A stretch of 64,000 nucleotides of DNA from Schmidtea polychroa (GCA_044892525.1 CM097885.1:150660001-150724000), one strand, 5' to 3'; shown: positions 5,701-42,493, counted from the stretch's first letter. Translations and numbers: made by a program. The notes: generated by a model from the sequence alone, not told the origin.

Positions 5701-5800
5701 TTTCCTTTTCTCTTTTGGCACTTACCTTGATTTGGGATAATCTGATAATTTAATGTGTCAGTTAAATCGGATTTGTTAATTATTATTTCGGTTTTTTTAG

Positions 5801-5877: not shown

Positions 5878-5939
5878 GTGAGAAATTTCTAATTGATCTT
5901 CTTTTCATTTATTATTAATTATCATATTCGAATTTCCAG

Positions 5940-11839: not shown

Positions 11840-14800
11840 TGTTGGCGTATGTGGGGGAAAGAAAATATATAGGCATGATTATCATACACATCAGGTGTCA
11901 TTATTCTACTCAGATCATTCCCTCACGCACTCCAAATGATCATTCGCATATTCCCACATATGAGCCCGTGGTGATGTTCCACGTTGGTACTGCTCACACG
12001 GGTTGGAAAGAGTTAGCAGGTGAGCCCCTGCCTTAGGACTACTCCTAACCCTTTCTCGGTTCGGGTTCTACGGTGCCATAGAAGGTCTTACCCATTCTTT
12101 ACGCATCATTCGGTCCGACCCTGGTCCAAAAGGTAAGACATTTAAGTTTCTACTATATTTTCGTGATCCTTCTCTCATGCAATTCAACCGTAGCAAATCA
12201 TACATACAATTTACACAATCAAAGAAAATCGAACAGTTATATTAGAACGGAACATCAAATTACATTCAGCATTGTTTAAACAAATGCAAAACATTAAAGA
12301 TTAGTCACGAGATAACGTCGCTTCTTCAAGTTCGTTCGTAATAGCAGGGGAATCGAGACCCGAGAGAGAATTGGCTACGAGAATGCTTCTCCTTCTGCGA
12401 GCATCTCGTCGATGTCAACGGGCAACCGGCGATCTTCGAGGAATTTGATACTGCCGGCCGGAACTACCCGGAATACTTCCTTTGTAGGAATGGAATGGGA
12501 AACTGTAATTTCCTTGATAGTTGCTTTGGCCACAGATAACGATGCTTCGAGCGCGGCCATGGCATTTCTACGCTTCTGATTTTTTTCAGAACGCGTCAGC
12601 CGCTTACGCTTTCGATGGGGAAATGTAGCTTCTGCTGGGGACTGAAGGAGGTGTGGCACGCGTACTGGAGCCAAGATGGGGTCCGATGGACCGCCAGCCG
12701 TAGGTCGATCGCCCGAAAGAACTGGGGCGGGAATTGGCGGCATTTGTGGGCCATGCCCTTTACAACTGGATATTGATGAGGTTTCAGCTAATTTGTGGTG
12801 TATTGGGAACACGTTAGTCCCATCTTGTATCGGGTACTCGCGAACTCGCTTCGCTAGTTCTGATTCGGAATACACCTTGTGCAGTGCCTCTGATTGGGCC
12901 TTTATGGTTAGCCGCTGGCACCTGCTTTCTTCCAGGAGACTGTCACGGCAGTGCTCCAAACGCAGAATCTTGCTCTTCTCCTCCTTCATTTGTGGTGGGG
13001 AGAACCACGTTCCCTCATAGAGGTCAATTCTCTTCTTCAATTCCCCGATGTACAAGTGGAGCTGTGCGATATCGGCATTTTTATCAGCACAGGAAAAGCA
13101 AGGTCTGAGGGTTTTCCCGGAACTGGTTGAGGTATTCATCTAAATCGTTAAGGAATTGTTATTTTTAAATTAAAAATTTACTGGGGTATTATTCATATTT
13201 TCGGAAAAAGAAATGTAAGATTTCCCCGACCAAGTTATCCAAGAGTGACCTACCAATCTACCCCGTCGGCAATTAACCACCTTCATACAATCTCAAACAT
13301 CCAAACTAACCCATGTAATCATTACTACTTTATGAGAAGAAAACGGGATTCATGAAAACAATTCATTATGCTAGCTTTTAGGTATACTTTTTGGGTTTGA
13401 CTATCTTTAACTGCTGTATGACTGTTACTTCGTTACTATGAACGCTATTATCTTAATTATCGTTATTACCTTTTAACAATTATATTTTACTCATTTTGCT
13501 GCCATGTCGTTAGATTCTACGCGTGCTATATGATGAACGGAAAATCGGCAATTACCGGGACACCCCGTCTTGTATGTAGACCCCTCGGGTTTGTACGAAA
13601 ATCATAATACTCTCACTTAAATTGTTATCATGGATTATAATTTAGTTATTTAAATTTAACGCCATAAACATCGTCATAGTGACGCTTAAATCGGGCGCAG
13701 TTATGTGTTCATTTGCTTGTCTATCTATACCGTCAACTATCGACGGGTTCGTTATGATGCATGTTGGTGCATTTAACTAGCGATTTGCACACCGACAAAA
13801 AAAAAATTTCTCGTCGCATCGCCATGTTCTCTGACGCAATCCAGTGGTCTACTAGCAGATACAAGTTTACGACTCTCTCCCTATGATTAGGTAATGATGA
13901 TATCCACATGTGCACTGTGACCTAATCTGAGTGTGATGCATGTGTACATGTGGGCGAGCGATTAATAGAGGTAGAGTTGTAGAGAGATGCTCTAGTTGAG
14001 ACGGGTACTCAGTTGGTGTGTCCAAAACTCAAGAAATTCGATTGTGTGGGTGACTTGCGGATTCAGTAGATAAAAATTACTCTATATTCTGGATTCTCGA
14101 TATTAGGTCGACTCACGATAAGACCACTCAATACACTTGATCGACTGCCGCCTTCTCAATCAACTCGTTCGATGACTTTATCAAATTATCAGCTGATTTT
14201 CCCCGTCAGAAATTTATCTGGCCATGGGCAACTAATGATTCTCCTATCGCTATTGATATCTTCACTCGGACTCACGGCAAGTGATTTATTTCCTTATCAA
14301 AAAATTTGTTTACTTTCCCCTTTTAGACGAGCCGCTGTCAACGTCAAACCAAACTTTATCAGATATTCAATGTCAAGCTAAAGTCTAAATTAGTAAATGA
14401 ATGGGTTTACTCGCTAATATCCCTGCAATGTACCTCTCGGGGTTCAATTTTTAAGGGCTTAGCAGATCTTCCAGTGAAAACTCTAACAATTCATCGCCCA
14501 TCCCTACTCAGACATCTATCAATATTCGACGGAAAAGCAAATTTTCCTAACAACAACGAACTACTGATCTCAATCCGAAAAATTGTCTCCGACTTTGGAA
14601 AATTTACATTATTTATTCTGAAACTTCAGCGTGACTTCATAAAAGAAAACGAAAGATCCTCTATCAGATCGCGCTCGAGGTGAGAAATTCTACTTCCAAC
14701 AGTATTCCACCTGCGGAGTCTCCTCACCCCTCACGACCCACCCAAGAAGGCAATCATCTCTGCCGCCGTTCTTGCATCGTCGTGAGGGACCGTTTGACTC

Positions 14801-15970
14801 GTCTTTCACAAAATCAACATTTAATATACAATTTATGAATAATAAAATGAATGAATGAATCAAATAGTAGCAAATGAATCAGTAAAAATAAATGGATCAA
14901 TAAAGCTCACCCGGCGACCCTATCATTTGGACTCCAAGTATGATGTTATTCATTCCACACAACCGCAGCCTCATCATAACCTTGGTAGATCTCTCACATG
15001 ATAAATATCCTTCTCTGCAAATGTCACATTTTCATTTTCAGCATCTTCGGGATTTCTTATGAAGGTCAACCTTCCCACTGTTGTGTTCTCTGCCGTGGTA
15101 CATTTCCAACTCATCCACATCATACTGGGAGCTCTCAGATGGTACAGTCGCCGGCACCATGAAGAAAAGGCCATTTGTATTTCAATAAATTTATTTTACG
15201 AAATGAGTTTTGTCTTTCATCATTAATAAATTAACTAATACATATAAATCAATCGGCCTACCGATAGTTTCAAAAACTGGAACGAAATCGAGTTTAAACT
15301 GGTTTCAAATTATTTGAAGGTAACTTCTGAAAATCTCTCGAATTAGCGTTTGCGATTCTAGTCCTGAATTCGGTGAAATATCTGAAGTCTATGCTCTGTA
15401 ATCGTGAAAAATTAAAAGTGGTTGTCGTCTAATTTTTCACGTTACATATATAGTATTTTTCGTCCAATCAGGACGCTACCTGCTTGTATTTTTACTATTT
15501 ATTATTATTTTTCTGTTTTTTATTATAATATATTAGATTTTAATGACTTAACTTATTTCTTATTATTATTTTATTTATTTTCCTATTTTTATTATTTTCC
15601 TCCTATTTTTCTTGTAGGTTTATTGCTACTTTATTGTAATATAATTTTTTTGTTTTAATTAGACTTAAAGATAGTTTTATTTTTTATTTATTTCTTAAAT
15701 TTCTCTTTTATTTGTTGTCACTTTTTTACTTATTTTATTCTATTTCATCTGCTGGGTCCTAACTCGCTTTATTTCTAAATCTCAAGGGGTTTATTGGATT
15801 TTATTTAGTTTGTTTACTTATTCTTATTCTTTTATTGTTATTTTATTGTTCCTTCCTATTTACTAGTGAGATTTCTATGGTACTTTATATTTTTATCTTA
15901 TTTCATTTATTTTTCAAGGATTACTTTTCTATTCGCTCCAGTTTTCGAAACTCCACATTTTAGCCCAACA
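11840..15970 (-). repeat. 3' LTR (4,131 bp)
   Basis: Direct repeat of 38363-42493 with the same length and the same ORF set. One substitution seen (13066 G vs 39589 A). Confidence 0.97.
12375..13139 (-). CDS. LTR-encoded hypothetical protein (254 aa; coiled coil, Pro-rich linker, basic NLS-like segment), 3' LTR copy
   Basis: ATG-started 765-bp ORF, GC-richer than the surrounding LTR. Contains HRKRKRLTRSEKNQKRRN. Confidence 0.6.
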   Translation of the reverse strand: MNTSTSSGKTLRPCFSCADKNADIAQLHLYIGELKKRIDLYEGTWFSPPQMKEEKSKILRLEHCRDSLLEESRCQRLTIKAQSEALHKVYSESELAKRVREYPIQDGTNVFPIHHKLAETSSISSCKGHGPQMPPIPAPVLSGDRPTAGGPSDPILAPVRVPHLLQSPAEATFPHRKRKRLTRSEKNQKRRNAMAALEASLSVAKATIKEITVSHSIPTKEVFRVVPAGSIKFLEDRRLPVDIDEMLAEGEAFS

Positions 15971-16200
15971 AATCACTCCGGGGCCCGTTAAAATTGCGCC
16001 CCGCAATTCACATAATATCATACGTTTAACTCATACCTTTTTCGGCATAACAACTAATTTCACGGTCAACATTCACACAAACATAAAATTAAAATAACTA
16101 AATAATACTTTAATTAAACAGATAAAAGGACAAATATAAGCAAGCAGTGGCCACTTTAGGTGACCGGATTTATACACACAAAGTTTATGAATAGTCGATG

Positions 16201-16566
16201 TCACATGATCTCAAGGTTCGGAATGTTATTACTGTCTTGGTTGGTTGAGTTCTGGGTCGGATGGCTGGTCGAAGTTGTTATCGTGGGGAGCTGGATTGTA
16301 ACAGGCATTTGGTCAGGGGATAGATTTTGTTGCATTTGGTCGGGTGGGTTTGGTTGTTGAAAATGTACTGCTCGTTTATGTTTATTTTTCGATCGTAGGT
16401 TCTTTCTTTCGTGTTTTTCGGATAGTGACTGGTTTCTTCTCCATGTTCGATGAATATCATACGCTTTCCAGATGACTAGTGCGCAGATGATAAGGGTTTC
16501 ACTGATGGTAGTATAGAGTAAGACTTGGCTTTCTTTTACTTCCTTCTTCCTGATGATTTCCTTCAA
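16201..16566 (-). CDS. Small accessory reading frame with one predicted TM helix (no ATG start)
   Basis: TTG-started frame with VLLYTTISETLIICALVIW, followed by a basic segment and a Q/T/N-rich tail. Confidence 0.35.
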   Translation of the reverse strand: MKEIIRKKEVKESQVLLYTTISETLIICALVIWKAYDIHRTWRRNQSLSEKHERKNLRSKNKHKRAVHFQQPNPPDQMQQNLSPDQMPVTIQLPTITTSTSHPTQNSTNQDSNNIPNLEIM

Positions 16567-16837
16567 GGATTGTTGGGTGGTTTGTTCTTGTAAGAGAATT
16601 TCGAGCTGTTCGATTTTTTTGGGTTTGTAGGTGGAGTTGCATTTGAAGTTTTTTCCAGACGACTTTGTTCCAGCATTGTTTCGGGATGTTGTTGGAGAGC
16701 TTTCTCTCGCTTTTTAGTTTGGTTAAAGGGTTTTGCTGTTTCTCGGGATTCTCCCAGAATGTTGGGATTGGCTGCCACATGGGTCTCCCGTTTATCGCTA
16801 TCATCATTATTGTCACCAAGGTTGCTCCGAACCACAT
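16499..16837 (-). CDS. Small accessory ORF with signal-peptide-like N-terminus (112 aa)
   Basis: ATG at 16837, MWFGATLVTIMMIAING hydrophobic leader. Overlaps the next frame (16201-16566). Confidence 0.4.
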   Translation of the reverse strand: MWFGATLVTIMMIAINGRPMWQPIPTFWENPEKQQNPLTKLKSERKLSNNIPKQCWNKVVWKKLQMQLHLQTQKNRTARNSLTRTNHPTILEGNHQEEGSKRKPSLTLYYHQ

Positions 16838-16892
16838 ACTGCTATACGAAAATTTTTATTTACAATTATTTACATTGATCATTCATCTTTAA

Positions 16893-17594
16893 TTATTGCC
16901 GGGTTTTCTTTTTACGGGTTTTCTCGGATGTTCTCATCACTCTCGTTTCTGCTTTTATTACTCGTTTTCTCAATTCGGGTAGTACTTTTAATTGTTTGTC
17001 TCTTTCGTCTAACTGTTGCCTTAGGGTTATTATTTTTTCTTTTAGTGCTTTTATTTCTTGTGTTGCTCTTTCGAGGTTTCTATGGTTCATTATCTGTAGG
17101 AAATCATTTTCCCTTTCCGCGTCTTCTTCGTTGTCTATTTCCTGGTATTTGTTGTTCATTCGTCTCATTATCTCACATTCTTTCTGTTTTTGGTGTAGTT
17201 GGAGTTGTAACTCTTTCAGGCTTTCTTGGTGTTTCCGTGCCTCGGTTTTCCAATAGTCACTAATCACTTCGTCGGCCTTTCGACTGGCCCTCTCCTGCCA
17301 TAATTCTTCCGCGATCTTTTCCCAATTTCTCCCTCGCTTTCTTTGCTCGTGAAGCCATTCGTTTTCTTCCTCTACCTCTTTCTTTACTCCTTCTAACAAG
17401 ATATATTCTCTTTTCAATACTTTAATCATTTTTCGATTATCTCTCCACCTTTCAACTAATCTTTCGTTTTCCTGTCTCTCTTCTTGTAATTCTTCCTTGA
17501 TAGTTTTCTTCCTCTCCACTTCATCAACTTCAATTTCTCCCTCTTCTAACTCGATTATAGATGTTATGCTGGGTTGTCCGTTTTCGGTGTTCAT
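16893..17594 (-). CDS. Accessory coiled-coil protein (233 aa)
   Basis: ATG-started, E/K/R/Q-rich with heptad character. Same strand and codon style as the other element genes. AT-rich spacers on both sides. Confidence 0.75.
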   Translation of the reverse strand: MNTENGQPSITSIIELEEGEIEVDEVERKKTIKEELQEERQENERLVERWRDNRKMIKVLKREYILLEGVKKEVEEENEWLHEQRKRGRNWEKIAEELWQERASRKADEVISDYWKTEARKHQESLKELQLQLHQKQKECEIMRRMNNKYQEIDNEEDAERENDFLQIMNHRNLERATQEIKALKEKIITLRQQLDERDKQLKVLPELRKRVIKAETRVMRTSEKTRKKKTRQ

Positions 17595-17781
17595 TTTCTA
17601 TAATATATACATAATTAATAGCTGCGCTACAGTGCGGCTTATACTTATACATTTATATGTTATTTTATAATCAGGGTTACAGTCCCTTTCATACTTTTAC
17701 TGTACCATTAATTTTTTTTTTTTTTTTTTTTGGTTGGGATACAGGTCCCGATTTTTATATTTTTTATCTTTCCTTTTATCC

Positions 17782-18819
17782 TTATACAAAGGTCTCTTCC
17801 TGGCCTACATATCCCTCATCGCTTTCTACTGACGTTTGTAATTGGAGTGCGATGGGATCAAATGGGATGTAGTACCGGGGAATCTGCGCTCTAAGTTCTT
17901 GCACTTCGTCTCTTAGTGCTCTTGACACGTTAAGTTCCTCGTCCAACAGGTATGTTAGATACCTGGTTTCATCGTCTCTTACCTCTATCTGTTTTTCTAG
18001 CTCTTCCGCTTTTTCGCCGTTTTCCCATTTCTTGATCTCTATCTCCAGATTTTTAAGATTTTCGTTATACATTTTCCTTTCGTTTTCTAACTTTTTGTTT
18101 TTCCCCGCCAGTACCATATTTCTCTGCTCCAGAGCTCCTTGGTATCCGTTGACATCTCGTTCTAGTTCTGCGACCTTATTTACCAGTTCCACGAGTCGTC
18201 CTGACTGTTGAAGTATCAGTTCTTCCATTGCGGCATTCTCGTGCTCCCTTATGGAGATTTTCATGGCTAGATGTCTTTCAAATTCCATGGCTTTGGTCTG
18301 CCATGTTTGGCTTCGGACCGCAATCTTTCTGAGCCGTTTCAGTTCTTCTCTTATGACCAGATTTTCCTCCCATTTGCCTTGTTCGCTTTCGTATTCTAAT
18401 CTCATAGGCAATTCTTTCATTTCTTTTTTCATCTCTTTGTTCTGCCGCTTCCAGTTTCGGGCTTCTGCCAATAGGTGATTCATTTTCCTTCCTTCCTTTT
18501 GTTTTTCTGCTTCTCGTTTTGTGTTTTCGTCCGTCAATCGTTTCCGTGCTTCCTGCACTAATTGTTTTAAATAGTGGCTGTGTGCTTCTTGGCGAGTGTT
18601 TTCCAATGATGCCCACTTAGAGGCTCTTTTGCATGCTTCTGCTTCGGCTCTTAAATTGTTTATTAACCACTGATATTTGTTATTCTCGTATTCCCTGGCC
18701 TCTTCGAGATGGTTGTGGGTCTGGTTCGTCAATTGTAACATTACTTTGACCCATTTTCCCTTATGGATTTTATTGACTTTGGTTTCGTGGTTTGGGGCTT
18801 CAGTTCCTTCTTGTGTCAT
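17782..18819 (-). CDS. Accessory long coiled-coil protein (345 aa)
   Basis: ATG-started, continuous charged heptad repeats, no recognisable catalytic motif. Confidence 0.8.
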   Translation of the reverse strand: MTQEGTEAPNHETKVNKIHKGKWVKVMLQLTNQTHNHLEEAREYENNKYQWLINNLRAEAEACKRASKWASLENTRQEAHSHYLKQLVQEARKRLTDENTKREAEKQKEGRKMNHLLAEARNWKRQNKEMKKEMKELPMRLEYESEQGKWEENLVIREELKRLRKIAVRSQTWQTKAMEFERHLAMKISIREHENAAMEELILQQSGRLVELVNKVAELERDVNGYQGALEQRNMVLAGKNKKLENERKMYNENLKNLEIEIKKWENGEKAEELEKQIEVRDDETRYLTYLLDEELNVSRALRDEVQELRAQIPRYYIPFDPIALQLQTSVESDEGYVGQEETFV

Positions 18820-19038
18820 CCTTGTCTAAATAACGATATCATTAACTTAACGTTGTACGCTTATATCTGGTTTATTATTTATTTATTTTTATAATTCGTT
18901 ATAGGAGTTGTTTTAGGAGTTTTTCGCTTAAGTTTACCTTTGGTAGATTTGGGGGGAATTTTCTACACTACTATATAATATTTTACTGGATATATACGCC
19001 GATATTTACAATTAGTATATACAAAATTATTCGTCTCC

Positions 19039-20427: not shown

Positions 20428-20516
20428 TTCTATAATTATATATATACATATATTCGTTACCGGTACAGTTTCGTATTTTTATTTACATTTATTTACATTG
20501 CTATTTTAGGTTATAT

Positions 20517-20876
20517 TTATTGGCTGGAAGAGTCGGCCTCTTGTCCGCCCTCTTCCCTGTTGGTTAACCATTCTGACCAGTCTTCTATCTCCTCTCGCTC
20601 CATCTCTTCCGCGATTCTTATTAACTCTTCTTCTTGCACCTGGCTGTATCGTGATATTCGGTCTATCTCTCGCTGCATTTGTTCTATTTTCATTCGTTGG
20701 TCTTCGATTATTCTTACATAATTGAAGCCTTTATTTAAACTTTCGACTAAGCTTCTTTGTACAGCGAGTCCTTGTTCCTGTAAATTCGAAATCACTTGAG
20801 TTAACATTGCACATTGTTGTTTCCACATCTCCTCGGTTGTTGTACTGTGGTTTACTTCCTCGCCTATTCGCTCCAT
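20517..20876 (-). CDS. Accessory coiled-coil protein (~119 aa from first ATG; frame open from TTG at 20900)
   Basis: MERIGEEV... with helical, charged content and an acidic C-terminus. Confidence 0.6.
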   Translation of the reverse strand: MERIGEEVNHSTTTEEMWKQQCAMLTQVISNLQEQGLAVQRSLVESLNKGFNYVRIIEDQRMKIEQMQREIDRISRYSQVQEEELIRIAEEMEREEIEDWSEWLTNREEGGQEADSSSQ

Positions 20877-21044
20877 TCTTAATTTATATATACTTTTCAA
20901 TCCTTATCTAATTTTATTTTTATATTAATTATCCCCATCATTATATACTATTGATACCGCGCTTATATAAAAATATAGAATACTGTTATATAAATAAATA
21001 ATTCCTACTTACTTTTTACAATCTATATACAGTCATAATCCTTT

Positions 21045-33000: not shown

Positions 33001-35480
33001 TTTTCGTTTCTTTCTAGTTTCATTATCTTTTGTATGAAGCGTCGGTATGGTATGATGTCAATGAATTCCTGGTTTCTTACCACCACTGGAAGTATTTCCT
33101 TTACTTGTTTTATCGCTTCTTCTCTTTCTTTTCTCAATTTCATTTCGATATTCTCGTCTTCGCTTTCGCTTGTCACGTCGCTTTCTCTTTCATCTTCATC
33201 TGCTCCGATCTTTTCTCTTAGTTGGTCGATATTTTCATTTAACTGTAACATTTCTCCACCAAGGCTACTCACATAATCCTCATCGTCATCTGTTGACAAC
33301 ACCTTCTTTGTTGTCCTCATCATATTAATTCGTAAATTTCTCATTCTTGGTACTTTCTTTAACTTGTTGTTCTCGAGTATCGTTAGCTCCTCTGAGTCTA
33401 ATTCTCGTATCATATTATGCTTTAGATGATTAATCTGTTTTTCATTTTCGTTATTTTCTGCTTCTGCTTCTGTTTTTGTTTGCTCATTTTCTCTTTCGAT
33501 TTTATCTTTTATCTTTTTCCAAAATATTTTCTGAATTCTCTGATTTCCTTTTAGTGGTGTTGTTGAATTTTCCTTTTTTGCTGCTGTAATTGTTTCTTTC
33601 GGTTTCTCTGGTTCGCTCATAGGTACAACTCTTGGATTTTTACCGTAATTGTAACAATATTGCTCCTTTATCTCCTTTACCATCCTCATCATATTTATTC
33701 GTAGTGGTTGTTCTTGTCGCTGCTGAATTCGCTCTCTTTTTATCCTTTCTTCTTCAGCTTGTAGTCTTTGCCATTCTTGTGCATGTTGTTGCACTTCATA
33801 ATTGTTAAGATTCTCGGTGCTTCTCATCATGCGTATATTCTGGGTTGGTTGTGGTACTTGCTCTTGTCTCGGTCTCATCATTTGTTGCATCATCTGCTTC
33901 ATTTGTGAAATTTCTTGCATCACATTCATTTGCTTTCCCTCACTAGGATTACTTTGTCGTTGCGGATTTGGTGCATAGTTATTATTTCGCTGTGGTGGTC
34001 GTTGCTGTTGGCTCCTTTCTCGACAGTCTCTTGAGATATGACCTAGTTGCCCGCAGTTAAAACATCCTCTTGATTGGCATATATTTTCCGTGTGTCCTCG
34101 TCGTCCACACCTATTGCAATTTGCGTTTCGGTAACAATCTCTATCCCAATGTCCTGGTTTACCGCATGTTCGGCATTGTTTGTTATCGTTCATATTTCGT
34201 CGATTATTAAAGTTGTTCCCATTGTTCGAGTTGTTGCGTTCACTGTTATTCCCGTTTGATCGTCCTTGTGGTGGTTTGAAAATTTGATGTGCTCCTGGTA
34301 TAAACTGATTCATCTTGGGTTCATGATTATTGTTATCCCCATTTTCCGTTTTCACCGTGGCTGTTGCGATTCTTCCCTCCTCTTGCATGACGTTCATTTG
34401 TGCTGGGAGGTGTAGTTCGCATCTTGTGGCCCAATCTATGGCTTCTTCTAGTGTTTTACACATTTGACATCCCACCGAGGCCCTTACCTCTTCTCGGCGT
34501 AGTCCTTCTATGAAGTAACCAATTAAATTTTCCTCCGGCAAGTTTCCGTTCATGGCCTTCTTTGCCAATCTTCGCAATTCACTTGCGTATAACGTAATTG
34601 ACTCGTTTGCTCTTTGTTTTCTACTTGCCAGTTCACCTAACGCTTGATTTATTGGTTTGCTGGCTCCGAATGTTTTTCTCAAAAATGTTTTGATGTTTTC
34701 CCAATTGTCTAATTTCGTATTTCTTTCTTTTGCTTCCAGATACACTTCGAGTGCGCTATCGCACAAAAACAGAGGCATTCGTTTACTAATTGCTTCGGAT
34801 GTCCATCCACACACATCGATATAGACTTCAAAATTTGTTATGAACGTTGCCAACTTGTTCGCATTCCCGTTGAACGGTTCGCCTCTAAATTTTTCTTTAT
34901 ATTCGTCGGGTTTTGCTACATTCATCTTGATTGGTTCTTGAAATGCTATTATTTCTTTTAAATTTTCTAGTGATGTAGCTAAACTATGGACGGATAATTC
35001 TTCCGTTGACCCGGTTAGGTTGTTTGTTATATCGGATAGACTTTCTCTACTTCTAGATCGACTGGGCGTATGTCCGGCTGTGGGGTTTTCTTGATCGTAT
35101 ATCGGTGTTTTGTGGGGTCTTTTTGCTCCTTGTGATATTCCTCTCTGCTGCCTAAATGATCGTCCTCTTTTGAGTTGATCTAATTCGTCTCCTGAAAATA
35201 ATACGTCTCCTGGCTTACTTGAAGATCTAAGGTTGGGTTTATCCGTGATTTTCCTTTTACTCTTTTCTGTCTTTTCACGTGGATTTTCTACAGTTAGCGT
35301 CTGCTGAATTGGTCGAGTTCGGTTTTGATATTGTCTTCCTTTGTGCGGGTTCTGAATTGCTTTTCCTGGGTTGTTTGTATATTCTCTGGATTCCTCTTGA
35401 GCTGGTTCTGAATTGACTTGGTTGGATGGATGTCTACAATGAAAATATGATATCGTGTTGCCTTTGCTTACACGAATCAA
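21045..35480 (-). CDS. Single-ORF giant polyprotein: Gag, Ubl x3, Bcl-2-like, chuvirus-like glycoprotein, PR, RT, RH, INT, ankyrin, signal/TM module (4,811 codons)
   Basis: No internal stop over 14,436 bp. First in-frame ATG at 34925 (Met186). Motifs: three CX2CX4HX4C, DTG, YIDD, TDAS, HHCC and D-D-E, ankyrin TPLH repeats. Confidence 0.96.
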   Translation of the reverse strand: MIRVSKGNTISYFHCRHPSNQVNSEPAQEESREYTNNPGKAIQNPHKGRQYQNRTRPIQQTLTVENPREKTEKSKRKITDKPNLRSSSKPGDVLFSGDELDQLKRGRSFRQQRGISQGAKRPHKTPIYDQENPTAGHTPSRSRSRESLSDITNNLTGSTEELSVHSLATSLENLKEIIAFQEPIKMNVAKPDEYKEKFRGEPFNGNANKLATFITNFEVYIDVCGWTSEAISKRMPLFLCDSALEVYLEAKERNTKLDNWENIKTFLRKTFGASKPINQALGELASRKQRANESITLYASELRRLAKKAMNGNLPEENLIGYFIEGLRREEVRASVGCQMCKTLEEAIDWATRCELHLPAQMNVMQEEGRIATATVKTENGDNNNHEPKMNQFIPGAHQIFKPPQGRSNGNNSERNNSNNGNNFNNRRNMNDNKQCRTCGKPGHWDRDCYRNANCNRCGRRGHTENICQSRGCFNCGQLGHISRDCRERSQQQRPPQRNNNYAPNPQRQSNPSEGKQMNVMQEISQMKQMMQQMMRPRQEQVPQPTQNIRMMRSTENLNNYEVQQHAQEWQRLQAEEERIKRERIQQRQEQPLRINMMRMVKEIKEQYCYNYGKNPRVVPMSEPEKPKETITAAKKENSTTPLKGNQRIQKIFWKKIKDKIERENEQTKTEAEAENNENEKQINHLKHNMIRELDSEELTILENNKLKKVPRMRNLRINMMRTTKKVLSTDDDEDYVSSLGGEMLQLNENIDQLREKIGADEDERESDVTSESEDENIEMKLRKEREEAIKQVKEILPVVVRNQEFIDIIPYRRFIQKIMKLERNEKDLIPNEEKVIIKKYMEKMKQAETTRYVIKIGTSKGLERIWIKNAVTDDLFDWIREHLGSSRKKEYLYQHQGEQIKPDMHLIDALIWPGETQILKLYKEKQPANIHEWAKDAKAEYDFSIKLKLEQIKQCTLRRNLDKLIKQIQEQVEDNWDLLIARRTPDMHELMSRLRDTELLRMSDWRTINLIHKYGRLKETQPQKLEITIWLPNEEKRRIKMSNQSTVDDLVTKINQEITEKVRSESSDGMIDDVVMMYDKIILRAEDDTSLSEMGMWDNHQIIRILPMDEFRTRDITYQKEIRDRMKTLYQKSVEIIEIHQQWLKEKELQGKIKKLSVRSCRRTPWERTWNAENKEWKIRKGIFVETDISEIESESEEEEDEPPKYEEDEIESTSDDGSETDVTSESETETRHIHAMRKKEREYADMDSEEAMEAREREEKERYKQLGDILATGTKNQKRQVIALANIILKTSENIHNLREMAKAIEEYRQYNEWYPEQLEQIIRKWRNQEWAQDTQERYRIRVKYPDKSIEDTEVHPTTKIRELKKKLAYETPFHLQLFGKSLDDNADVGITPMRLGEINVLTMAETLGKPIKRKNKSSKPTKGSLSTPSPNKVASKTNETEEIEEIILEDSDEGAGERSPILVRWPTGAEIWTTSQPSTSYQQPNKLSIEEIIDNTTETETDEQFQRQKGPTKATPEGQTDKIIDEWNEWLRNNDSSLPRTDNERNPNYENTREAGTMMEKRAKGRPKKQGEKPEFKTREQLKQEQGQVRLEKLDKIVWDLKEAQPTIERGEKWIRELVKDMLIITNPQLRRLWQRKVASVDARQLWNTISGIIPKLIKEKTKTTKTDWEETRRVIEQLTLNANDDEHHLVVLTYLMYNLMGLAARKIPNKQFANHVEMTVTIIENTIEPHIIRAGGWKRLIQAPRKNEQERSMQIRLKKLLHELEWELPLKDPASRKASINSLMMTMMIWMLCTSGAAGFTIYDCDNSIIGERYSLRDIEECRQASPNKLDIVKKKVSYHVYQESDFIRTQARECVVSKKVLAYYCGQYSYSTLILPGLDKEIVPIQREDCKELFRTGAMRIRDGVTIHGQSGMIKTESIYVAGRVKSTDGSCNGGTYTIRGEVISGVVVIESYTVELKEYEAQFDANNYQMKTNPACRATENVCRTGISTIIYEANTQKCRLQLLKSALFNEVKGEIYENEDDDEENGNVRMRNGKPVPPSPKEKRLTTQKTPTALITDDPDIGMRFIREKETTKCDSIVYRTNYAGIYMSRQVIDRAVGKVATEDVKLYLYANNKMDFLFHRGQTTMQKVYYDLIQNDCSLNKEILKTKLAIAITHPDNTMPSLPLPDGHFGRMVGEVMYTYACTKTFARLPRKPTIPPGKCANELEISYKGRNRFVQPVTRIMNPIGFYPNTFNCSNAYGPLYEKPDGKWIMLPVKTEVQEPKKFGLIELATEQDFKPIDVSKAGMYSPEDLETARLNVLFPARRESILSNMVTITGGTNFQSGPNYELLLSPDHFQQATSNMMKAMWGRFLVFGQMMAGILGIILIIQIVRVILTQMLACFDIYKREKKVNWKLIVGFLPFLAKTMVLHGHSKDIHRIKRLIKILTKIKGTDEEVGRRFRKTMYDEATRTQLKKNKPKFLDRFRNRSNSSDSDDDDNGNDKYPYPSRNPNEKPIETAPYWEKEKTNTWIANGSYIPPDIVGQQTALTMTQNMYPQLPSQPGMNYMPTRRTKSVDQADDVRTIAVMSSPGGAAVTVMIQINGKETSAMIDTGANVSAIAINQIPSKCWKDIEQTTIHIIACSKETVDVVGRWWTTLRYQDNEIETYLAVIPKLSEPCIIGTDLMPELFKEVVIDLTTMCLKDKMGRICKMNAIIRCPEKIIVPAKSQMICQIKVDAGMEGEVIFEPSKSFEKRRELPLAREIITINEDGEIPINITNFEEEDKIIYENERLGRLTPMIDIELPKITNETTKADELWIIDSTLLTEKEKERLQQLLIEYKDIFAISDLDLGACDVTLHAIPLIDETPIALRPYKLAEKQKEIAEAEVQKMLDAQVIEPSCSPWQFPVVMVKKKDGTQRFCIDYRKLNAVTKRDTYPLPDINEMLLMLQGAAYFTSLDLKSGYWQIKVKEEDKEKTAFTLGRDLYQFRKMPFGLTNAPASFQRCMNFVTHGIKQCMVYIDDLLIYSATFEQHLEDIRNVFVRLRQWKLKLKPSKCDWAKEKVTFLGHIVSAKGKEPDPRNLEKIKTCPAPKTVTQVQEFLGLCGYYRKFIKNYAGIAKPIQELVKKDIPFIWGAEQQKAFETLRDKLIEAPILVHPDFKKPFLLATDASGYAAGAILGQLDEEGKERVIGYYSRTFKKHEKNYSVTEREALAIIQAIKHFRYLLWGHEICITTDHQPLVWLGQHKEASSRLMRWAMQLQEYSPFIKFKAGRANANADCMSRFIFPDLVDHEMQRICLMVAEDLDFCQLRKDQQEDTELKQIIEYVKTGKAEVYEKDQKLKEHMDKHRHRYIIEKDWLLIMDGEKRLMCIPENRRKDLLTQYHDGRLGGHMSSKKTLARMKQKYFWPTLTEDVTEWVKNCITCATRKNTGTKWKAPLKPMPVPAEPMTMISMDVVGPLPESDRGNIYILVITDYLTKFPEAFAMADQKARTIAKILVEEICCRYGTPKQILTDQGTNFMSEIMSEVTNYFKIAKLRTSPYHPQTNGMTERFNGTLIQMLSNYVDRHQRDWDEYIKLCLMAYRMSIHASTKMSPFKLMYGRECNMPMDLEYQPPISQYMEIDDYVTKFKERMQEIWETAGLNIKFYQESYKELHDRKKNVKQHTFQTGDWVMIETPELIPGTTKKLQRNGKGPYEILFVGETNVRVRLVNNPFTRPIYVNVARCKPIPKTATSQPEGRTLTTRSQTYRINMLQQINEPTGNRLGLQPSEAEKIIKEVKVKMPGWAEDRLDFEILGGLLTMIENYANRERTHPLLRVVKSQWPILFTITDHYGDTPLHKLLKVGSNEQILETIEAFRDCNISTDQENNQGYTPLMIAANRDKAKDIIIALLETGSKITTQDHNQKNALHHAIEGKSTEAFIILVDLISYEDNREIGNMYDGLFTAIKEKLTTITGILIAWRNPIKNDYMVDINETFTKGENTLMREAMRGHHLFEIPNQLLQRGIKFSNHKDEQLIRKRITNFEKAISQFTDKVQVKFWDTVSVLHMMETMNNIRENYLSIIQVLTAEERINSSNKKKIKMKKVKTRKSEEQVEQPITDIATTSKPKTINSDQEIVVRKAKEVFFEEMQDLSDEAILAKITKTVHTYARDQTTNLDIGKIKTFIPLAFTLPTKDSRTPLQQAILAAKENRAITIIRILRDFGEESNAKNEQGETAMMYAAITNIHPKTLHILHQSGSRLDEISNEGNSTMDWATIQPNLEMIRFICKNATRTEVENICKNTSQFQWNTIRMNLEAMKLLLTWRIPQSNKYAININEFYENGENAMVKNTLTKGGTPKIIMIVLNREDLKFTQNLNEQKRIGKHRRIQLRELVKEWNRKRHVATGRKEFELEAKLARNRVLTAYRRLLNDINVEDDILNDSGGDKDDKDDKDDDNNEKGRNGNKEKEKLEENNQENNDASREKEENNPRNRMKQEEKTNSGKQRVCLLFTNKEMETNMMIMILVLTMVEMITAQGGMRTIKEAKETGNKDNKEEELKQEKKKQVQEQQWDLKEEWDLKERCILGRCMSRAYQRLVLKNEDAEPITEVRIQEAYRNREGKRITKVKGKEVHLGKGGEVVITQLQPRKEHKVCIARLRPGEDCLQYVIQQQPPKEYTICIWRKDTARECRRYPGKRGKKRKIDDEKDEQGKRKKNSEKHQDNYVSEEEMEKIQKMAKEGMNEEIARIRGMMKGNGKDGNLKSTETISTITSKEKAEIISIKQMMWISGIIITGAFLIITGGTIKIIKDRRHHGELEMARIRNFQHRVKRPSNIKQEQWVEAWNAQRPPSSRI
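22730..24065 (-). other. Two ankyrin-repeat blocks (~23720-24065 and ~22730-23015) after integrase
   Basis: DHYGDTPLHKLL, NNQGYTPLMIAA, DHNQKNALHHAI; DSRTPLQQAI, NEQGETAMMYAA, NEGNSTMDWA. Confidence 0.88.
24400..25440 (-). other. Integrase (HHCC, DDE, GPY motif)
   Basis: HDGRLGGH...CITC, DVVGPLP, TDQGTNF, NGMTERFN, GKGPYEI. Confidence 0.96.
25690..26940 (-). other. pol: Reverse transcriptase and RNase H (Ty3/gypsy type)
   Basis: FCIDYRKLNAVTKRDTYPLP, LDLKSGYWQI, MPFGLTNAPASFQR, VYIDDLLI (YIDD at 26463-26474). RNase H LATDASGYAAGAIL, YSVTEREALAII, TDHQPL. Confidence 0.97.
27400..27770 (-). other. Aspartic protease domain
   Basis: AMIDTGANVSAI (DTG at 27684-27692) and the downstream CIIGTDLM flap-side motif. 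Confidence 0.93.
28230..30135 (-). other. Env-like chuvirus-type (class III) glycoprotein: internal signal peptide, Cys-rich ectodomain, TM
   Basis: Signal LMMTMMIWMLCTSGAAG then FTIYDC. Conserved pattern YCGQYSYS, GSCNGGTY, YANNKMDFL, GHFGRMVGEVMYTYAC, CANELEISYKGRNRFVQPVTRI, GMYSPEDL...FP. TM WGRFLVFGQMMAGILGIILIIQIVRVIL. Confidence 0.82.
30240..30720 (-). other. Divergent Bcl-2-like helical domain
   Basis: VIEQL...(hydrophobic helix)...IEPHIIRAGGWKRL matches Bcl-2 VVEEL...LHTWIQDNGGWDAF, spanning 64 vs 63 residues from the first V to GGW. The BH1 NWGR motif is absent. Confidence 0.6.
31261..32927 (-). other. Three ubiquitin-like (beta-grasp) domains (~32705-32927, ~32158-32408, ~31261-31463)
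   Basis: The third, RYRIRVKYPDKSIEDTEVHPTTKIRELKKKL...LQLFGKSLDD, aligns by eye to ubiquitin [30 protein letters not shown]...LIFAGKQLED. The second has STVDDL...YDKIIL...DDTSLSEMG. The first is weaker. Confidence 0.7.
34023..34925 (-). other. gag: Gag domain (capsid plus three CCHC zinc knuckles at 34134-34175, 34077-34118, 34023-34064)
   Basis: EPFNGNANKLATFITNFE...YASELRRLAKKA...YFIEGL capsid pattern. Knuckles CRTCGKPGHWDRDC, CNRCGRRGHTENIC, CFNCGQLGHISRDC. Confidence 0.93.
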
Positions 35481-36145: not shown

Positions 36146-36820
36146 ACGACTGGCTGGCACTTTTCAACAGCTCAATCTTCTTCTCCTGACCGGTTGGACT
36201 ATTCAACAACTCGATCTTACGACTGGCTGGCACTATTCAACAGCTCAATCTTCTTCATCTCCGAACTGGCTGGACTTTTCACAGCTCAGTTTTAATTTTC
36301 CCTGCCCGGCTGGACTTTTCAACAGCTCGGCCTTAATATCTCCGACTGGCTGGACTTTTCACAGCTCAGTTTTAATTTTTCCTGACCGGCTGGACTTTTC
36401 AACAGCTCGGCCTTAATATCTCCGACTGGCTGGACTTTTCACAGCTCAGTTTTAATTTTTCCTGACCGGCTGGACTTTTCAACAGCTCGGCCTTAATATC
36501 TCCGACTGGCTGGACTTTTCACAGCTCAGTTTTAATTTTTCCTGACCGGCTGGACTTTTCAACAGCTCGGCCTTAATATCTCCGACTGGCTGGACTTTTC
36601 ACAGCTCAGTTTTAATTTTTCCTGACCGGCTGGACTTTTCAACAGCTCGGCCTTAATATCTCCGACTGGCTGGACTTTTCACAGCTCAGTTTTAATTTTT
36701 CCTGACCGGCTGGACTTTTCAACAGCTCGGCCTTAATATCTCCGACTGGCTGGACTTTTCACAGCTCAGTTTTAATTTTTCCTGACCGGCTGGACTTTTC
36801 AACAGCTCGGCCTTAATATC
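36146..36820. repeat. Tandem array, 80-bp unit made of two diverged 40-mers, in the element's 5' leader
   Basis: TCCGACTGGCTGGACTTTTCACAGCTCAGTTTTAATTTTT + CCTGACCGGCTGGACTTTTCAACAGCTCGGCCTTAATATC, repeated exactly 6 times at 36341-36820. Progressively degenerate copies back to ~36146. Confidence 0.95.
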
Positions 36821-37405
36821 TCTAAACTCTGCATGCTTCCGTTCCTTTTTGTCTTTATTCTATACTGTCATCTTCCTATTTTTACTTTTATTTGTCGACT
36901 TAATCTGTACCGCTTTGGAAGGTTTCCCCTTTCCCCCCTTGCTTAAAACGCAAAACGATCGCATTGATCCATTTCTGCATTGGTATGGTGATCAGCCATA
37001 CCGCAGAAACTTTTCAATATTCGCGATGGTACCTCGCCTTACATCTCTTACTCGGGGTGATCGGTTATCCCCTCCCGAACGGTTTTTCAATTATCGTACC
37101 TCCCGAAGGTGGCTCGGTTTATTCCCCCTTTAATCTTATGTTGGGACTAGCTCCACTTTATGTACTCGATTTAAATTTTAAAATACCCTTTCTTCATGGT
37201 GAAAATTATGATACCACAGATCAAATTATAGCTTCGCAAAATGAAATAAACACACAAAAATGATTTATTGATTATTCAGTCCATGCTACATATGATATAT
37301 GATACCATTATTAAAATATTAATGAATCAAATCAAAAAAAAATTAAAATATTTTAGTTTAATTGTTCAACCATCCAATTTCTCTCACCGAGCGACGATCA
37401 CGTAC

Positions 37406-37885
37406 CTAACTGAAGTAGATTGTGTGCTTCTCTTTTATTACACATGTGCACATAGAACACCGGATTAAACTGGCGGCGCATTCGTCACAATGGCTAAGGT
37501 GCCCACAAGGTAGAATCAGAATTTTGACAGGTCGCATCTTGCAAATGTTACAAGTTCTCAAGGCCGCTGCTTTCTCTACTATTGATGTTCGTATCCGCTG
37601 AGACAGAGTTTTGACTCGTTCGCGTATCCTCACATATTCGATGTTCAGCGCTGGGTCGTCGAGACGTTGCTGAAACCATTGGTAATGAATCGACAAGTCG
37701 GTATCGGTATTTGTTGATCCTAATCTGTCGGTTAGAAAGTTTTGTTTGGATATCAGCGGTGCGTTGTGGCTTTGTTGTTCTAGCAGTTCTATTTGTTTCA
37801 GTTTTTCCCTTAATGTTTTTATTGAATCATTTTCTATTTCGACGAACCGGCTTAGCTGTTGTAGATGTTGTCTAGCGTCTGACAT
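37406..37885 (-). CDS. RING-finger protein, IAP/MDM2-type C-terminal RING, no BIR domain (159 aa)
   Basis: CNICKMRPVKILILPCGHLSHCDECAASLIRCSMC...KHTIYFS*. The RING ends at the extreme C-terminus with an aromatic tail, as in IAPs. Coiled-coil N-terminus. Confidence 0.85.
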   Translation of the reverse strand: MSDARQHLQQLSRFVEIENDSIKTLREKLKQIELLEQQSHNAPLISKQNFLTDRLGSTNTDTDLSIHYQWFQQRLDDPALNIEYVRIRERVKTLSQRIRTSIVEKAAALRTCNICKMRPVKILILPCGHLSHCDECAASLIRCSMCTCVIKEKHTIYFS

Positions 37886-38337: not shown

Positions 38338-38355
38338 ATCCCGGCTGAGCCCCCA
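38338..38355 (-). other. Primer-binding site, tRNA-Pro type
   Basis: Minus strand reads TGGGGGCTCAGCCGGGAT (18 nt), close to the known tRNA-Pro PBS TGGGGGCTCGTCCGGGAT. It lies 7 nt inside the 5' LTR end. Confidence 0.85.
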
Positions 38356-38362
38356 AAAATCA

Positions 38363-41300
38363 TGTTGGCGTATGTGGGGGAAAGAAAATATATAGGCATG
38401 ATTATCATACACATCAGGTGTCATTATTCTACTCAGATCATTCCCTCACGCACTCCAAATGATCATTCGCATATTCCCACATATGAGCCCGTGGTGATGT
38501 TCCACGTTGGTACTGCTCACACGGGTTGGAAAGAGTTAGCAGGTGAGCCCCTGCCTTAGGACTACTCCTAACCCTTTCTCGGTTCGGGTTCTACGGTGCC
38601 ATAGAAGGTCTTACCCATTCTTTACGCATCATTCGGTCCGACCCTGGTCCAAAAGGTAAGACATTTAAGTTTCTACTATATTTTCGTGATCCTTCTCTCA
38701 TGCAATTCAACCGTAGCAAATCATACATACAATTTACACAATCAAAGAAAATCGAACAGTTATATTAGAACGGAACATCAAATTACATTCAGCATTGTTT
38801 AAACAAATGCAAAACATTAAAGATTAGTCACGAGATAACGTCGCTTCTTCAAGTTCGTTCGTAATAGCAGGGGAATCGAGACCCGAGAGAGAATTGGCTA
38901 CGAGAATGCTTCTCCTTCTGCGAGCATCTCGTCGATGTCAACGGGCAACCGGCGATCTTCGAGGAATTTGATACTGCCGGCCGGAACTACCCGGAATACT
39001 TCCTTTGTAGGAATGGAATGGGAAACTGTAATTTCCTTGATAGTTGCTTTGGCCACAGATAACGATGCTTCGAGCGCGGCCATGGCATTTCTACGCTTCT
39101 GATTTTTTTCAGAACGCGTCAGCCGCTTACGCTTTCGATGGGGAAATGTAGCTTCTGCTGGGGACTGAAGGAGGTGTGGCACGCGTACTGGAGCCAAGAT
39201 GGGGTCCGATGGACCGCCAGCCGTAGGTCGATCGCCCGAAAGAACTGGGGCGGGAATTGGCGGCATTTGTGGGCCATGCCCTTTACAACTGGATATTGAT
39301 GAGGTTTCAGCTAATTTGTGGTGTATTGGGAACACGTTAGTCCCATCTTGTATCGGGTACTCGCGAACTCGCTTCGCTAGTTCTGATTCGGAATACACCT
39401 TGTGCAGTGCCTCTGATTGGGCCTTTATGGTTAGCCGCTGGCACCTGCTTTCTTCCAGGAGACTGTCACGGCAGTGCTCCAAACGCAGAATCTTGCTCTT
39501 CTCCTCCTTCATTTGTGGTGGGGAGAACCACGTTCCCTCATAGAGGTCAATTCTCTTCTTCAATTCCCCGATGTACAAGTGGAGCTGTACGATATCGGCA
39601 TTTTTATCAGCACAGGAAAAGCAAGGTCTGAGGGTTTTCCCGGAACTGGTTGAGGTATTCATCTAAATCGTTAAGGAATTGTTATTTTTAAATTAAAAAT
39701 TTACTGGGGTATTATTCATATTTTCGGAAAAAGAAATGTAAGATTTCCCCGACCAAGTTATCCAAGAGTGACCTACCAATCTACCCCGTCGGCAATTAAC
39801 CACCTTCATACAATCTCAAACATCCAAACTAACCCATGTAATCATTACTACTTTATGAGAAGAAAACGGGATTCATGAAAACAATTCATTATGCTAGCTT
39901 TTAGGTATACTTTTTGGGTTTGACTATCTTTAACTGCTGTATGACTGTTACTTCGTTACTATGAACGCTATTATCTTAATTATCGTTATTACCTTTTAAC
40001 AATTATATTTTACTCATTTTGCTGCCATGTCGTTAGATTCTACGCGTGCTATATGATGAACGGAAAATCGGCAATTACCGGGACACCCCGTCTTGTATGT
40101 AGACCCCTCGGGTTTGTACGAAAATCATAATACTCTCACTTAAATTGTTATCATGGATTATAATTTAGTTATTTAAATTTAACGCCATAAACATCGTCAT
40201 AGTGACGCTTAAATCGGGCGCAGTTATGTGTTCATTTGCTTGTCTATCTATACCGTCAACTATCGACGGGTTCGTTATGATGCATGTTGGTGCATTTAAC
40301 TAGCGATTTGCACACCGACAAAAAAAAAATTTCTCGTCGCATCGCCATGTTCTCTGACGCAATCCAGTGGTCTACTAGCAGATACAAGTTTACGACTCTC
40401 TCCCTATGATTAGGTAATGATGATATCCACATGTGCACTGTGACCTAATCTGAGTGTGATGCATGTGTACATGTGGGCGAGCGATTAATAGAGGTAGAGT
40501 TGTAGAGAGATGCTCTAGTTGAGACGGGTACTCAGTTGGTGTGTCCAAAACTCAAGAAATTCGATTGTGTGGGTGACTTGCGGATTCAGTAGATAAAAAT
40601 TACTCTATATTCTGGATTCTCGATATTAGGTCGACTCACGATAAGACCACTCAATACACTTGATCGACTGCCGCCTTCTCAATCAACTCGTTCGATGACT
40701 TTATCAAATTATCAGCTGATTTTCCCCGTCAGAAATTTATCTGGCCATGGGCAACTAATGATTCTCCTATCGCTATTGATATCTTCACTCGGACTCACGG
40801 CAAGTGATTTATTTCCTTATCAAAAAATTTGTTTACTTTCCCCTTTTAGACGAGCCGCTGTCAACGTCAAACCAAACTTTATCAGATATTCAATGTCAAG
40901 CTAAAGTCTAAATTAGTAAATGAATGGGTTTACTCGCTAATATCCCTGCAATGTACCTCTCGGGGTTCAATTTTTAAGGGCTTAGCAGATCTTCCAGTGA
41001 AAACTCTAACAATTCATCGCCCATCCCTACTCAGACATCTATCAATATTCGACGGAAAAGCAAATTTTCCTAACAACAACGAACTACTGATCTCAATCCG
41101 AAAAATTGTCTCCGACTTTGGAAAATTTACATTATTTATTCTGAAACTTCAGCGTGACTTCATAAAAGAAAACGAAAGATCCTCTATCAGATCGCGCTCG
41201 AGGTGAGAAATTCTACTTCCAACAGTATTCCACCTGCGGAGTCTCCTCACCCCTCACGACCCACCCAAGAAGGCAATCATCTCTGCCGCCGTTCTTGCAT

Positions 41301-42493
41301 CGTCGTGAGGGACCGTTTGACTCGTCTTTCACAAAATCAACATTTAATATACAATTTATGAATAATAAAATGAATGAATGAATCAAATAGTAGCAAATGA
41401 ATCAGTAAAAATAAATGGATCAATAAAGCTCACCCGGCGACCCTATCATTTGGACTCCAAGTATGATGTTATTCATTCCACACAACCGCAGCCTCATCAT
41501 AACCTTGGTAGATCTCTCACATGATAAATATCCTTCTCTGCAAATGTCACATTTTCATTTTCAGCATCTTCGGGATTTCTTATGAAGGTCAACCTTCCCA
41601 CTGTTGTGTTCTCTGCCGTGGTACATTTCCAACTCATCCACATCATACTGGGAGCTCTCAGATGGTACAGTCGCCGGCACCATGAAGAAAAGGCCATTTG
41701 TATTTCAATAAATTTATTTTACGAAATGAGTTTTGTCTTTCATCATTAATAAATTAACTAATACATATAAATCAATCGGCCTACCGATAGTTTCAAAAAC
41801 TGGAACGAAATCGAGTTTAAACTGGTTTCAAATTATTTGAAGGTAACTTCTGAAAATCTCTCGAATTAGCGTTTGCGATTCTAGTCCTGAATTCGGTGAA
41901 ATATCTGAAGTCTATGCTCTGTAATCGTGAAAAATTAAAAGTGGTTGTCGTCTAATTTTTCACGTTACATATATAGTATTTTTCGTCCAATCAGGACGCT
42001 ACCTGCTTGTATTTTTACTATTTATTATTATTTTTCTGTTTTTTATTATAATATATTAGATTTTAATGACTTAACTTATTTCTTATTATTATTTTATTTA
42101 TTTTCCTATTTTTATTATTTTCCTCCTATTTTTCTTGTAGGTTTATTGCTACTTTATTGTAATATAATTTTTTTGTTTTAATTAGACTTAAAGATAGTTT
42201 TATTTTTTATTTATTTCTTAAATTTCTCTTTTATTTGTTGTCACTTTTTTACTTATTTTATTCTATTTCATCTGCTGGGTCCTAACTCGCTTTATTTCTA
42301 AATCTCAAGGGGTTTATTGGATTTTATTTAGTTTGTTTACTTATTCTTATTCTTTTATTGTTATTTTATTGTTCCTTCCTATTTACTAGTGAGATTTCTA
42401 TGGTACTTTATATTTTTATCTTATTTCATTTATTTTTCAAGGATTACTTTTCTATTCGCTCCAGTTTTCGAAACTCCACATTTTAGCCCAACA
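38363..42493 (-). repeat. 5' LTR (4,131 bp)
   Basis: Direct repeat of 11840-15970. On the minus strand it is followed by the PBS. Confidence 0.97.
38898..39662 (-). CDS. LTR-encoded hypothetical protein (254 aa), 5' LTR copy
   Basis: Same ORF as 12375-13139 with one Ala/Val difference. Confidence 0.6.
   Translation of the reverse strand: MNTSTSSGKTLRPCFSCADKNADIVQLHLYIGELKKRIDLYEGTWFSPPQMKEEKSKILRLEHCRDSLLEESRCQRLTIKAQSEALHKVYSESELAKRVREYPIQDGTNVFPIHHKLAETSSISSCKGHGPQMPPIPAPVLSGDRPTAGGPSDPILAPVRVPHLLQSPAEATFPHRKRKRLTRSEKNQKRRNAMAALEASLSVAKATIKEITVSHSIPTKEVFRVVPAGSIKFLEDRRLPVDIDEMLAEGEAFS

Follow-up and report, generated by a model that had tools for sequence, protein, structure and literature searches.

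A very young Burro-type Gypsy element with an envelope gene, probably of a planarian and likely to behave as a complex retrovirus

Gypsy elements of 30 kb with a giant Gag-Env-Pol protein have been known since 2007-2019, and Burro1 (GYPSM1) reportedly goes back to Jurka 2007 and Grohme 2018. Complex retroviruses such as foamy viruses, human immunodeficiency virus (HIV) and mouse mammary tumour virus (MMTV) express accessory genes from spliced RNAs with a common leader and carry a gene inside the long terminal repeat (LTR). In Schmidtea mediterranea, Burro1 exceeds 30 kb and encodes one polyprotein of ~4,600-4,900 amino acids (aa) together with accessory open reading frames (ORFs) and tandem repeats; the planarian Burro layout runs from Gag and three CCHC knuckles through an in-frame envelope (Env) placed before the protease (PR) to reverse transcriptase (RT), RNase H (RH), integrase (IN) and ankyrins (PMC6431247). 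Six S. mediterranea GAG-ENV-POL elements, with errantiviruses of the herpes simplex virus (HSV)/gB type, are described in PMC13524379. We analysed 64,000 nucleotides of DNA from Schmidtea polychroa (GCA_044892525.1 CM097885.1:150660001-150724000), called the window, which holds at positions 11840-42493 a 30,654-bp element on the minus strand with all of these Burro1 features. By its predicted domain order the element is a Burro-type Gypsy; it is not Burro1. This very young copy with an envelope gene likely functions in the manner of a complex retrovirus, and its host is probably a planarian. Its interesting parts are a gene inside the LTR, a cargo set that has no BIR domain, a predicted leader-splicing pattern and the loss state of an LTR intron.

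The element is genuine and its insertion very recent. Self-alignment of the window gives two LTRs of 4,131 bp, the 5' LTR at 38363-42493 (5' because the element is on the minus strand, as are all long ORFs and, unless noted, all element features below) and the 3' LTR at 11840-15970, which differ by one substitution (13066 G/39589 A) and no gaps and enclose an interior of 22.4 kb. The LTR termini are TGTTGG...CCAACA, and a TTAG target-site duplication (TSD) directly abuts the element on the left (11836-11839) and right (42494-42497; both unstranded). TG...CA LTRs, a tRNA primer-binding site (PBS), a TSD within the 4-6-bp range and the PR-RT-RH-IN order are those of Ty3/Gypsy elements. The divergence of 1/4,131 (0.024%), which is close to assembly error, would correspond to ~12,000 years if the rate is taken as 1e-8 per site per year. 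The original prediction, made from the sequence alone, had proposed the equal LTRs, the perfect termini, the TSD and the very recent insertion, and all four were borne out. Its description of the element as intact holds for the LTRs, TSD, PBS and open long frame and has to be qualified for the LTR intron, which is absent, the last accessory gene, which is split, and the polypurine tract (PPT), which is absent; its 14.4-kb ORF is the stop-to-stop span of 4,811 codons (35480-21045), of which only 13.9 kb or 4,626 aa follow the first ATG. The envelope, cargo genes, LTR gene and LTR intron were missed in that first reading. One contig of run X2 stops exactly at 11840, the last base common to filled and empty alleles, a weak hint of presence/absence polymorphism.

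The family has been recently active, as originally suspected, in the genome from which the window comes (G000). The exact LTR-PBS junction occurs 66 times there, and the RT stretch has 40 scored matches at 98-100% among 880 candidates. We sampled 40 of the other 65 junction copies; both LTRs were resolvable in 27 (13/40 were not), and 27/27 have their own 4-bp TSD and 0-3 LTR substitutions (24 in 113,327 LTR columns), so that the sampled relatives are as young as the window copy. The TSDs of these 27 copies show a weak target preference, with T at position 2 in 16/27 and A or T at position 3 in 26/27. LTR types range from window-like (1-5% off) through intermediates to ~33% off with shared ends, the internal genes being nearly identical, and seven combinations of allele classes (LTR, RING, coiled-coil) occur among 35 copies. 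The copies thus appear mosaic for LTR type and cargo alleles through frequent template switching.

A single frame, open from 35480, encodes the 4,626-aa polyprotein (21045-34925), in which Pfam domains follow the order Gag, zinc knuckles, Monjiviricetes-type fusion glycoprotein, protease, RT, RNase H, integrase and ankyrins. The Gag capsid (PF03732, E 1e-9) and three CCHC zinc knuckles (PF00098, E 3e-10; three motifs) lie at 34023-34775. The envelope glycoprotein (28302-30071; PF24664, E 7e-72) has a transmembrane (TM) helix at aa 2179-2197, and its predicted structure (pLDDT 69) aligns with that of herpes gB (E 1.6e-13), with no PDB sequence match at E<0.3; Env is accordingly a class III, gB-like, TM-anchored glycoprotein. 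It is preceded by a candidate internal signal peptide (aa 1595-1618; 30072-30143), picked by eye and under the hydropathy cut-off used. Upstream lies a weak Bcl-2-like (BH2-type) segment (30258-30410; PF00452, E 0.06) and, upstream of that, a weak ubiquitin-like match (PF00240, E 0.017), both below cut-off; a profile of the Bcl-2-like segment ranks Bcl-xL first (E 0.57), and its model (pLDDT 45) gave no fold match and its Atlas search no named family. Burro1 has ubiquitin-like and Bcl-2-like parts, and these sub-threshold matches stand at the expected places (PMC6431247). Protease (DTG), RT (YIDD), RNase H and an integrase with a GPY motif, identified by Pfam and motifs, occupy 24456-27734. 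No dUTPase Pfam match was found between PR and RT; the published dUTPase-like domain of Burro came from HHpred. Two ankyrin-repeat blocks (22839-23984, Pfam) are followed downstream by a C-terminal hydrophobic helix (21186-21242, hydropathy), and a repeat scan shows an 80-bp tandem array of 7.5 copies in the 5' leader (36221-36822, unstranded).

The size of 30,654 bp, the single polyprotein of ~4,600 aa and the Burro domain order agree with the Burro scale assigned by the original prediction. Its further suggestion of a possibly new family stands only narrowly: the element is unlike Burro1 as described, with no MATH in the polyprotein, no BIR and its TRAF as a separate full gene downstream of pol, but its Env is ~55% identical (82/150 residues, by eye) to that of Smed_errantivirus_5 (PMC13524379), and among the described Burro families the comparison covers Burro1. 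The match to Smed_errantivirus_2 is 19/50, also by eye; that element was dropped as a giant candidate, spans fitting Smed_errantivirus_5 and _6. Both of these resemble the window element in a gB-type Env between gag and pol and a similar coding span; Smed_errantivirus_5 has one intact copy with no LTR or PBS called in the excerpt, whereas the window family has at least 66 junction copies, and the cargo genes are not in the rows for _5 and _6 in the excerpt of PMC13524379. The LTR gene, LTR intron and acceptor pattern are unmentioned in the excerpted Burro1 description of PMC6431247. In a Burro-like element of Dugesia tigrina, as in the window, MATH/TRAF has moved from the polyprotein to an accessory ORF, there upstream with two Gag knuckles, here downstream with three; plant Ogre elements share the total size and multi-kb LTRs, but have an interior of 11-13 kb, in contrast to the 22.4 kb here, which include an envelope and cargo genes of animal type (PMC6431247).

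G000 also holds a high-copy sister giant family (L129-L148). Its LTRs are ~5.2 kb long, its polyprotein includes MATH, and it carries two RING genes, TRAF and a BIR-RING IAP; with MATH in ORF1 and a 392-aa BIR-RING gene it fits Burro1 better than the window element does. An RT-RNase H tree places the two families as sisters (SH-aLRT 100), and the clade around them (97) consists of Gag-Env-Pol elements, smaller ones included; it was built by a quick method from 48 rows, L122 and P0099 being excluded for short cover. Window and sister are 91% identical in RT, 81% in IN, 58% in Env and 43% in Gag, with synonymous sites saturated throughout. Recent pol swapping was rejected as the cause of the 91% RT identity, because the proportion of synonymous differences (pS) is 0.68-0.94 in all eight segments. 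At five BIR loci of the sister family an upstream RING and a downstream TRAF are placed as in the window, with a tRNA-Pro PBS in 4/5 and MATH in the polyprotein in 4/5; the sister MATH matches only the separate TRAF gene of the window element. A BIR search of G000 scored 150 of 309 candidates, mostly frames of 392-393 aa and none in the window. A BIR is lacking from the window element, where the best match has E 0.08, and from the 80 stretches sampled from other copies. The sister Env resembles Smed_errantivirus_6 by eye. An Env profile has 2,580 candidates in G000. Smaller Gag-Env-Pol elements with short LTRs (L111, L116, L121) have an RT ~50% identical to that of the window, and unnamed metagenomic Env-Pol polyproteins (P0054, P0059, P0063, P0074, P0075, P0077, P0078, P0084), with Pol 48-53% identical, group with the window lineage; P0077 is filed under a bacterial metagenome-assembled genome and is probably animal DNA, and P0069 and P0099 have ankyrins after the integrase. 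No named Burro was among the matches of the Pol search.

The primer-binding site (38338-38355), 7 nt from the LTR as against 8 nt in the sister family, is the 18-nt tRNA-Pro site that had been claimed: 18/18 nt agree with a tRNA-Pro(TGG) gene of G000 at its 3' end plus CCA. In G000 the tRNA-Pro(TGG) gene forms a tandem array with a ~475-bp period from G000:C1:130901009 (L150), an abundant primer source, and its motif has 2,190 matches; a tRNA gene scan found no tRNA gene in the window, and the element has no Rfam match. No polypurine tract was found before the 3' LTR, where no purine run of at least 8 occurs within 60 nt. At the expected place (15971-16010) is a short palindrome with a GC-rich motif, common to the sister family, which may serve as the plus-strand priming site. 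A 5-nt repeat at both interior ends was rejected as functional, the sister family being without it.

From the positions of promoter and AATAAA, the LTR is predicted to divide into U3 of ~550 nt, R of ~250 nt and U5 of ~3.3 kb; the rules on TATA-to-start spacing and poly(A) motifs used for this map are general knowledge. A CCAAT-like box and TATA box (41970-41995), kept in 8/8 aligned LTR types, would form the promoter. Downstream follow a predicted exon 1 of ~28 nt (41919-41946, from comparison of LTR promoters), joined here straight to exon 2; a second donor-like GT (41779-41784), the candidate leader donor, whose GT is kept in 8/8 aligned LTR types and whose motif is present in 66/72 promoters; and AATAAA (41713-41718), a candidate poly(A) signal closing R, found at most 110 nt downstream of this donor in 64/66 promoters. 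An imperfect inverted repeat of ~22 nt, seen by eye at 42452-42474 and ~41795-41815, links the start of U3 with the R region.

Elsewhere in the family, exon 1 (~25-28 nt) is followed by a GT-AG intron of 44-51 nt in 67/71 sampled LTR promoters (71 promoters from 80 stretches). The tail of the intron is a 24-30-nt exact copy of the same LTR's exon 1 in 65/67 cases, with 11 exon-1 types that differ down to 46% identity; only this copy is repeated, not the rest of the intron, and it starts 29-31 nt after the TATA box in 62/67. The intron is missing with a precise join in both window LTRs and in four sampled LTRs, and among the 40 closest places in G000 five are without it, two of them the window's LTRs. 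A third family (L114) has the same exon-copy layout. These patterns make it likely that the family's LTR intron is rebuilt at each copying round, strong-stop DNA from the spliced 5' end annealing to the exon-1 copy at the intron tail in an unspliced 3' R; rebuilding at first-strand transfer would explain both the fixed limits and the concerted change. In 9/25 intron types the base preceding the copy is G, where 10.5% G would be expected, which hints weakly at cap copying. The intronless window LTRs would be the product expected if the intron of the 3' R was also spliced or if the polymerase slipped between the repeats. A literature search found no report of an LTR intron kept through strand transfer, which is weak evidence of absence.

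Seven accessory genes accompany the polyprotein: one lies in the LTR, one (a RING gene) ahead of gag and the other five beyond pol. The LTR gene (38898-39662; second copy 12375-13139) encodes a 254-aa protein with coiled coils, an invariant EGTWFSP motif and a basic tract resembling a nuclear localization signal. It is 70-72% identical in aa to type-B LTRs, with proportions of nonsynonymous differences (pN) of 0.16-0.19 at pS 0.81-0.88, and homologues in two other families of G000, including one of 250 aa (42%) in the LTR of the third family (L114:6863-7612, minus strand), keep the EGTWFSP motif invariant and the basic tract present; among 1.84 billion representatives it has one unnamed match, and the Atlas gave no lead. 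The RING-finger gene (37406-37885; 159 aa, PF13920, E 3e-8) has an IAP-type RING and no BIR. After pol come a 119-aa coiled-coil gene (20517-20876) with a 33-36% identical homologue in the sister family; a full-length intronless TRAF gene of 462 aa (19039-20427) with RING, zinc fingers, coiled coil and MATH (E 3e-26), whose relatives are 17 unnamed proteins at 23-29%; a 345-aa coiled-coil gene (17782-18819) in two allele classes (98-100% and 76-86%) that differ by pN ~0.09 at pS ~0.73; a 233-aa coiled-coil gene (16893-17594); and a predicted type I membrane protein gene (16201-16837).

The RING and TRAF genes are under purifying selection. The ratio of nonsynonymous to synonymous rates (dN/dS) is ~0.1-0.2 for RING against divergent alleles, mostly 0.1-0.3 for TRAF and 0.06-0.15 for the 233-aa gene against divergent alleles, and mostly 0.03-0.3 over RING, TRAF and two coiled-coil genes, the compared pairs sharing ancestry. 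The membrane-protein gene is split over two frames in the window copy and reads through 208-223 aa in 18/20 copies with a detected start; this count is preferred to a motif-based one (19 in one frame, 9 in two frames or partial, 12 absent), which misclassifies some copies. Contigs of three runs bridge 3.6 kb at 16876-20505 between two similar intergenic motifs and represent a deletion variant without TRAF and two coiled-coil genes.

The start codons of all seven accessory genes share an acceptor-like context: [A/T]AG stands at most 6 nt upstream of 7/7 accessory ATGs here and of 7/7 in the sister family, whereas among control ATGs the share is 18-33% (P 4e-4 for the window element when the control is its non-coding DNA). 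At the LTR gene, TAG abuts the ATG in several unrelated upstream sequences. ATGs before the second donor occur in only four cases, all inside the first intron, so that the leader is ATG-free once spliced. Because promoter, second donor and AATAAA are conserved and the spliced leader is ATG-free, cis-splicing is favoured, and the accessory proteins are likely made by joining a common LTR leader to the AG before each start codon. A T-run loose end at 21295 was rejected as a poly(A) site, as it sits in an A-rich coding stretch, and no paper on Burro splicing was among those listed in a literature search, which is weak evidence of absence.

In the proposed cycle, RNA polymerase II would start ~30 nt downstream of the LTR TATA box, and the long RNA would be translated into a single Gag-Env-Pol-ankyrin polyprotein. 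Signal peptidase likely cuts this ahead of Env, and the viral protease behind the Env TM helix; these cleavages would leave Pol tied at first to the Env tail and not to Gag. The seven accessory proteins, translated from RNAs carrying the ATG-free leader, likely tune host ubiquitin and cell-death signalling. A tRNA-Pro would prime reverse transcription, the integrase would insert the product with a 4-bp duplication, and frequent template switching would mix LTR types and cargo alleles. Leader-spliced accessory genes, which are likely here, and an LTR gene are features in common with complex retroviruses. Unlike those, the element combines a Gypsy-type Pol with a class III Env placed in frame between Gag and Pol, and its LTR gene would lie in U5 instead of U3. 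A fuller picture is advanced tentatively, as somewhat less probable than its contrary: a spreading planarian complex retrovirus family that puts a ~28-nt leader on seven host-modulating genes, keeps a conserved nuclear regulator in a 3.3-kb U5, packages Pol via the Env tail, primes its plus strand without a PPT, swaps LTR modules 33% apart and rebuilds its LTR intron at first-strand transfer, the window copy being a rare failure of rebuilding in both LTRs.

Other explanations bear on the LTR pair, the intron and the cargo expression. That the identical LTRs are an assembly artefact is extremely improbable and already largely refuted: 0-3 differences per 4.2 kb may lie near long-read consensus error, but TSDs are present here and in 27/27 copies, LTRs match within each copy while sampled LTRs stand 1-33% off the window's, and a private 20-mer at the U3 end occurs in G000 solely in the window copy's two LTRs. 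The exon-1 repeat could instead be a plain tandem duplication homogenised by DNA-level conversion or slippage, with no rebuilding by strand transfer. Short direct repeats are readily deleted in reverse transcription, slippage explains the losses equally well, and one copy is without the intron in its 3' LTR only (L087/L088), so a DNA-level deletion between repeats can yield the same precise loss. We regard this explanation as rather unlikely, since in 62/67 cases the repeat keeps to the predicted start site and to the donor, the remaining intron being unrepeated, and conversion would not respect those two limits. Less likely again is that the accessory cassette forms an operon that is resolved through trans-splicing of a host spliced leader (SL) plus internal polyadenylation. 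Stop-to-start gaps are 55-219 nt with AATAAA in 4/5, S. mediterranea is reported to use SL trans-splicing and flatworms to have operons (PMC12582326, PMC8629364), and Cer1 of C. elegans receives SL1 on spliced RNA (PMC3315495); on the other side, the LTR itself provides conserved donors and a leader that is ATG-free after splicing, AATAAA is frequent in the A-rich strand anyway, and no SL-like loose end appears among the 13 of 81 loose-end rows shown.

For the retrovirus-like reading as a whole, the most serious contender, though still unlikely, is that the family moves only inside cells or is kept for a cargo benefit to host stem cells, its Env being no longer infectious. According to PMC13465017, a study of 2026 found the Burro1 IAP to benefit its host; the window family, however, is without a BIR-IAP, its gB fold is kept, and the C-terminal half of Env has pN 0.17 at pS 0.82 against the sister family. 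We thus still favour a copy that works like a complex retrovirus, against which several points weigh. The acceptor rule was chosen after the window sites had been seen, one sister acceptor site (at the LTR ORF) was picked by position and not homology, and in contigs of 4+4 runs, none recorded as RNA, neither a splice joint to an acceptor nor the leader was seen. The BIR-bearing sister family was without the exon-copy intron in the searches made, so that this intron is not universal. Exact-junction sampling favours young copies, the Bcl-2 and ubiquitin matches fall below cut-off, the Env signal peptide was read by eye, and the host was inferred from element homology alone.

Without a BIR, yet spread as recently as its sister kind that bears an IAP, this family allows a natural comparison bearing on the host benefit reported for Burro1. 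Its dozens of young mosaic copies reveal selection on cargo, among which the LTR gene has hardly any relatives in databases. With an intron that ends in an exon-1 copy, a retroelement could undergo splicing and still retain the intron, the window copy being a natural loss product. The MATH-domain expansion reported for S. mediterranea (PMC6109357) may be due in part to high-copy TRAF/MATH cargo.

The insertion lies ~5 kb beyond the end of the exons of a host T-box gene (226-7016, plus strand; PF00907, E 4e-29), and an effect on the regulation of that gene is possible. The right flank holds a gag fragment (47745-48107), an inverted repeat pair of ~340 bp and 85% identity (48462-48775/49889-50236), probably a miniature inverted-repeat transposable element or DNA-transposon remnant, and a segment resembling a transposase fragment (53269-53670).

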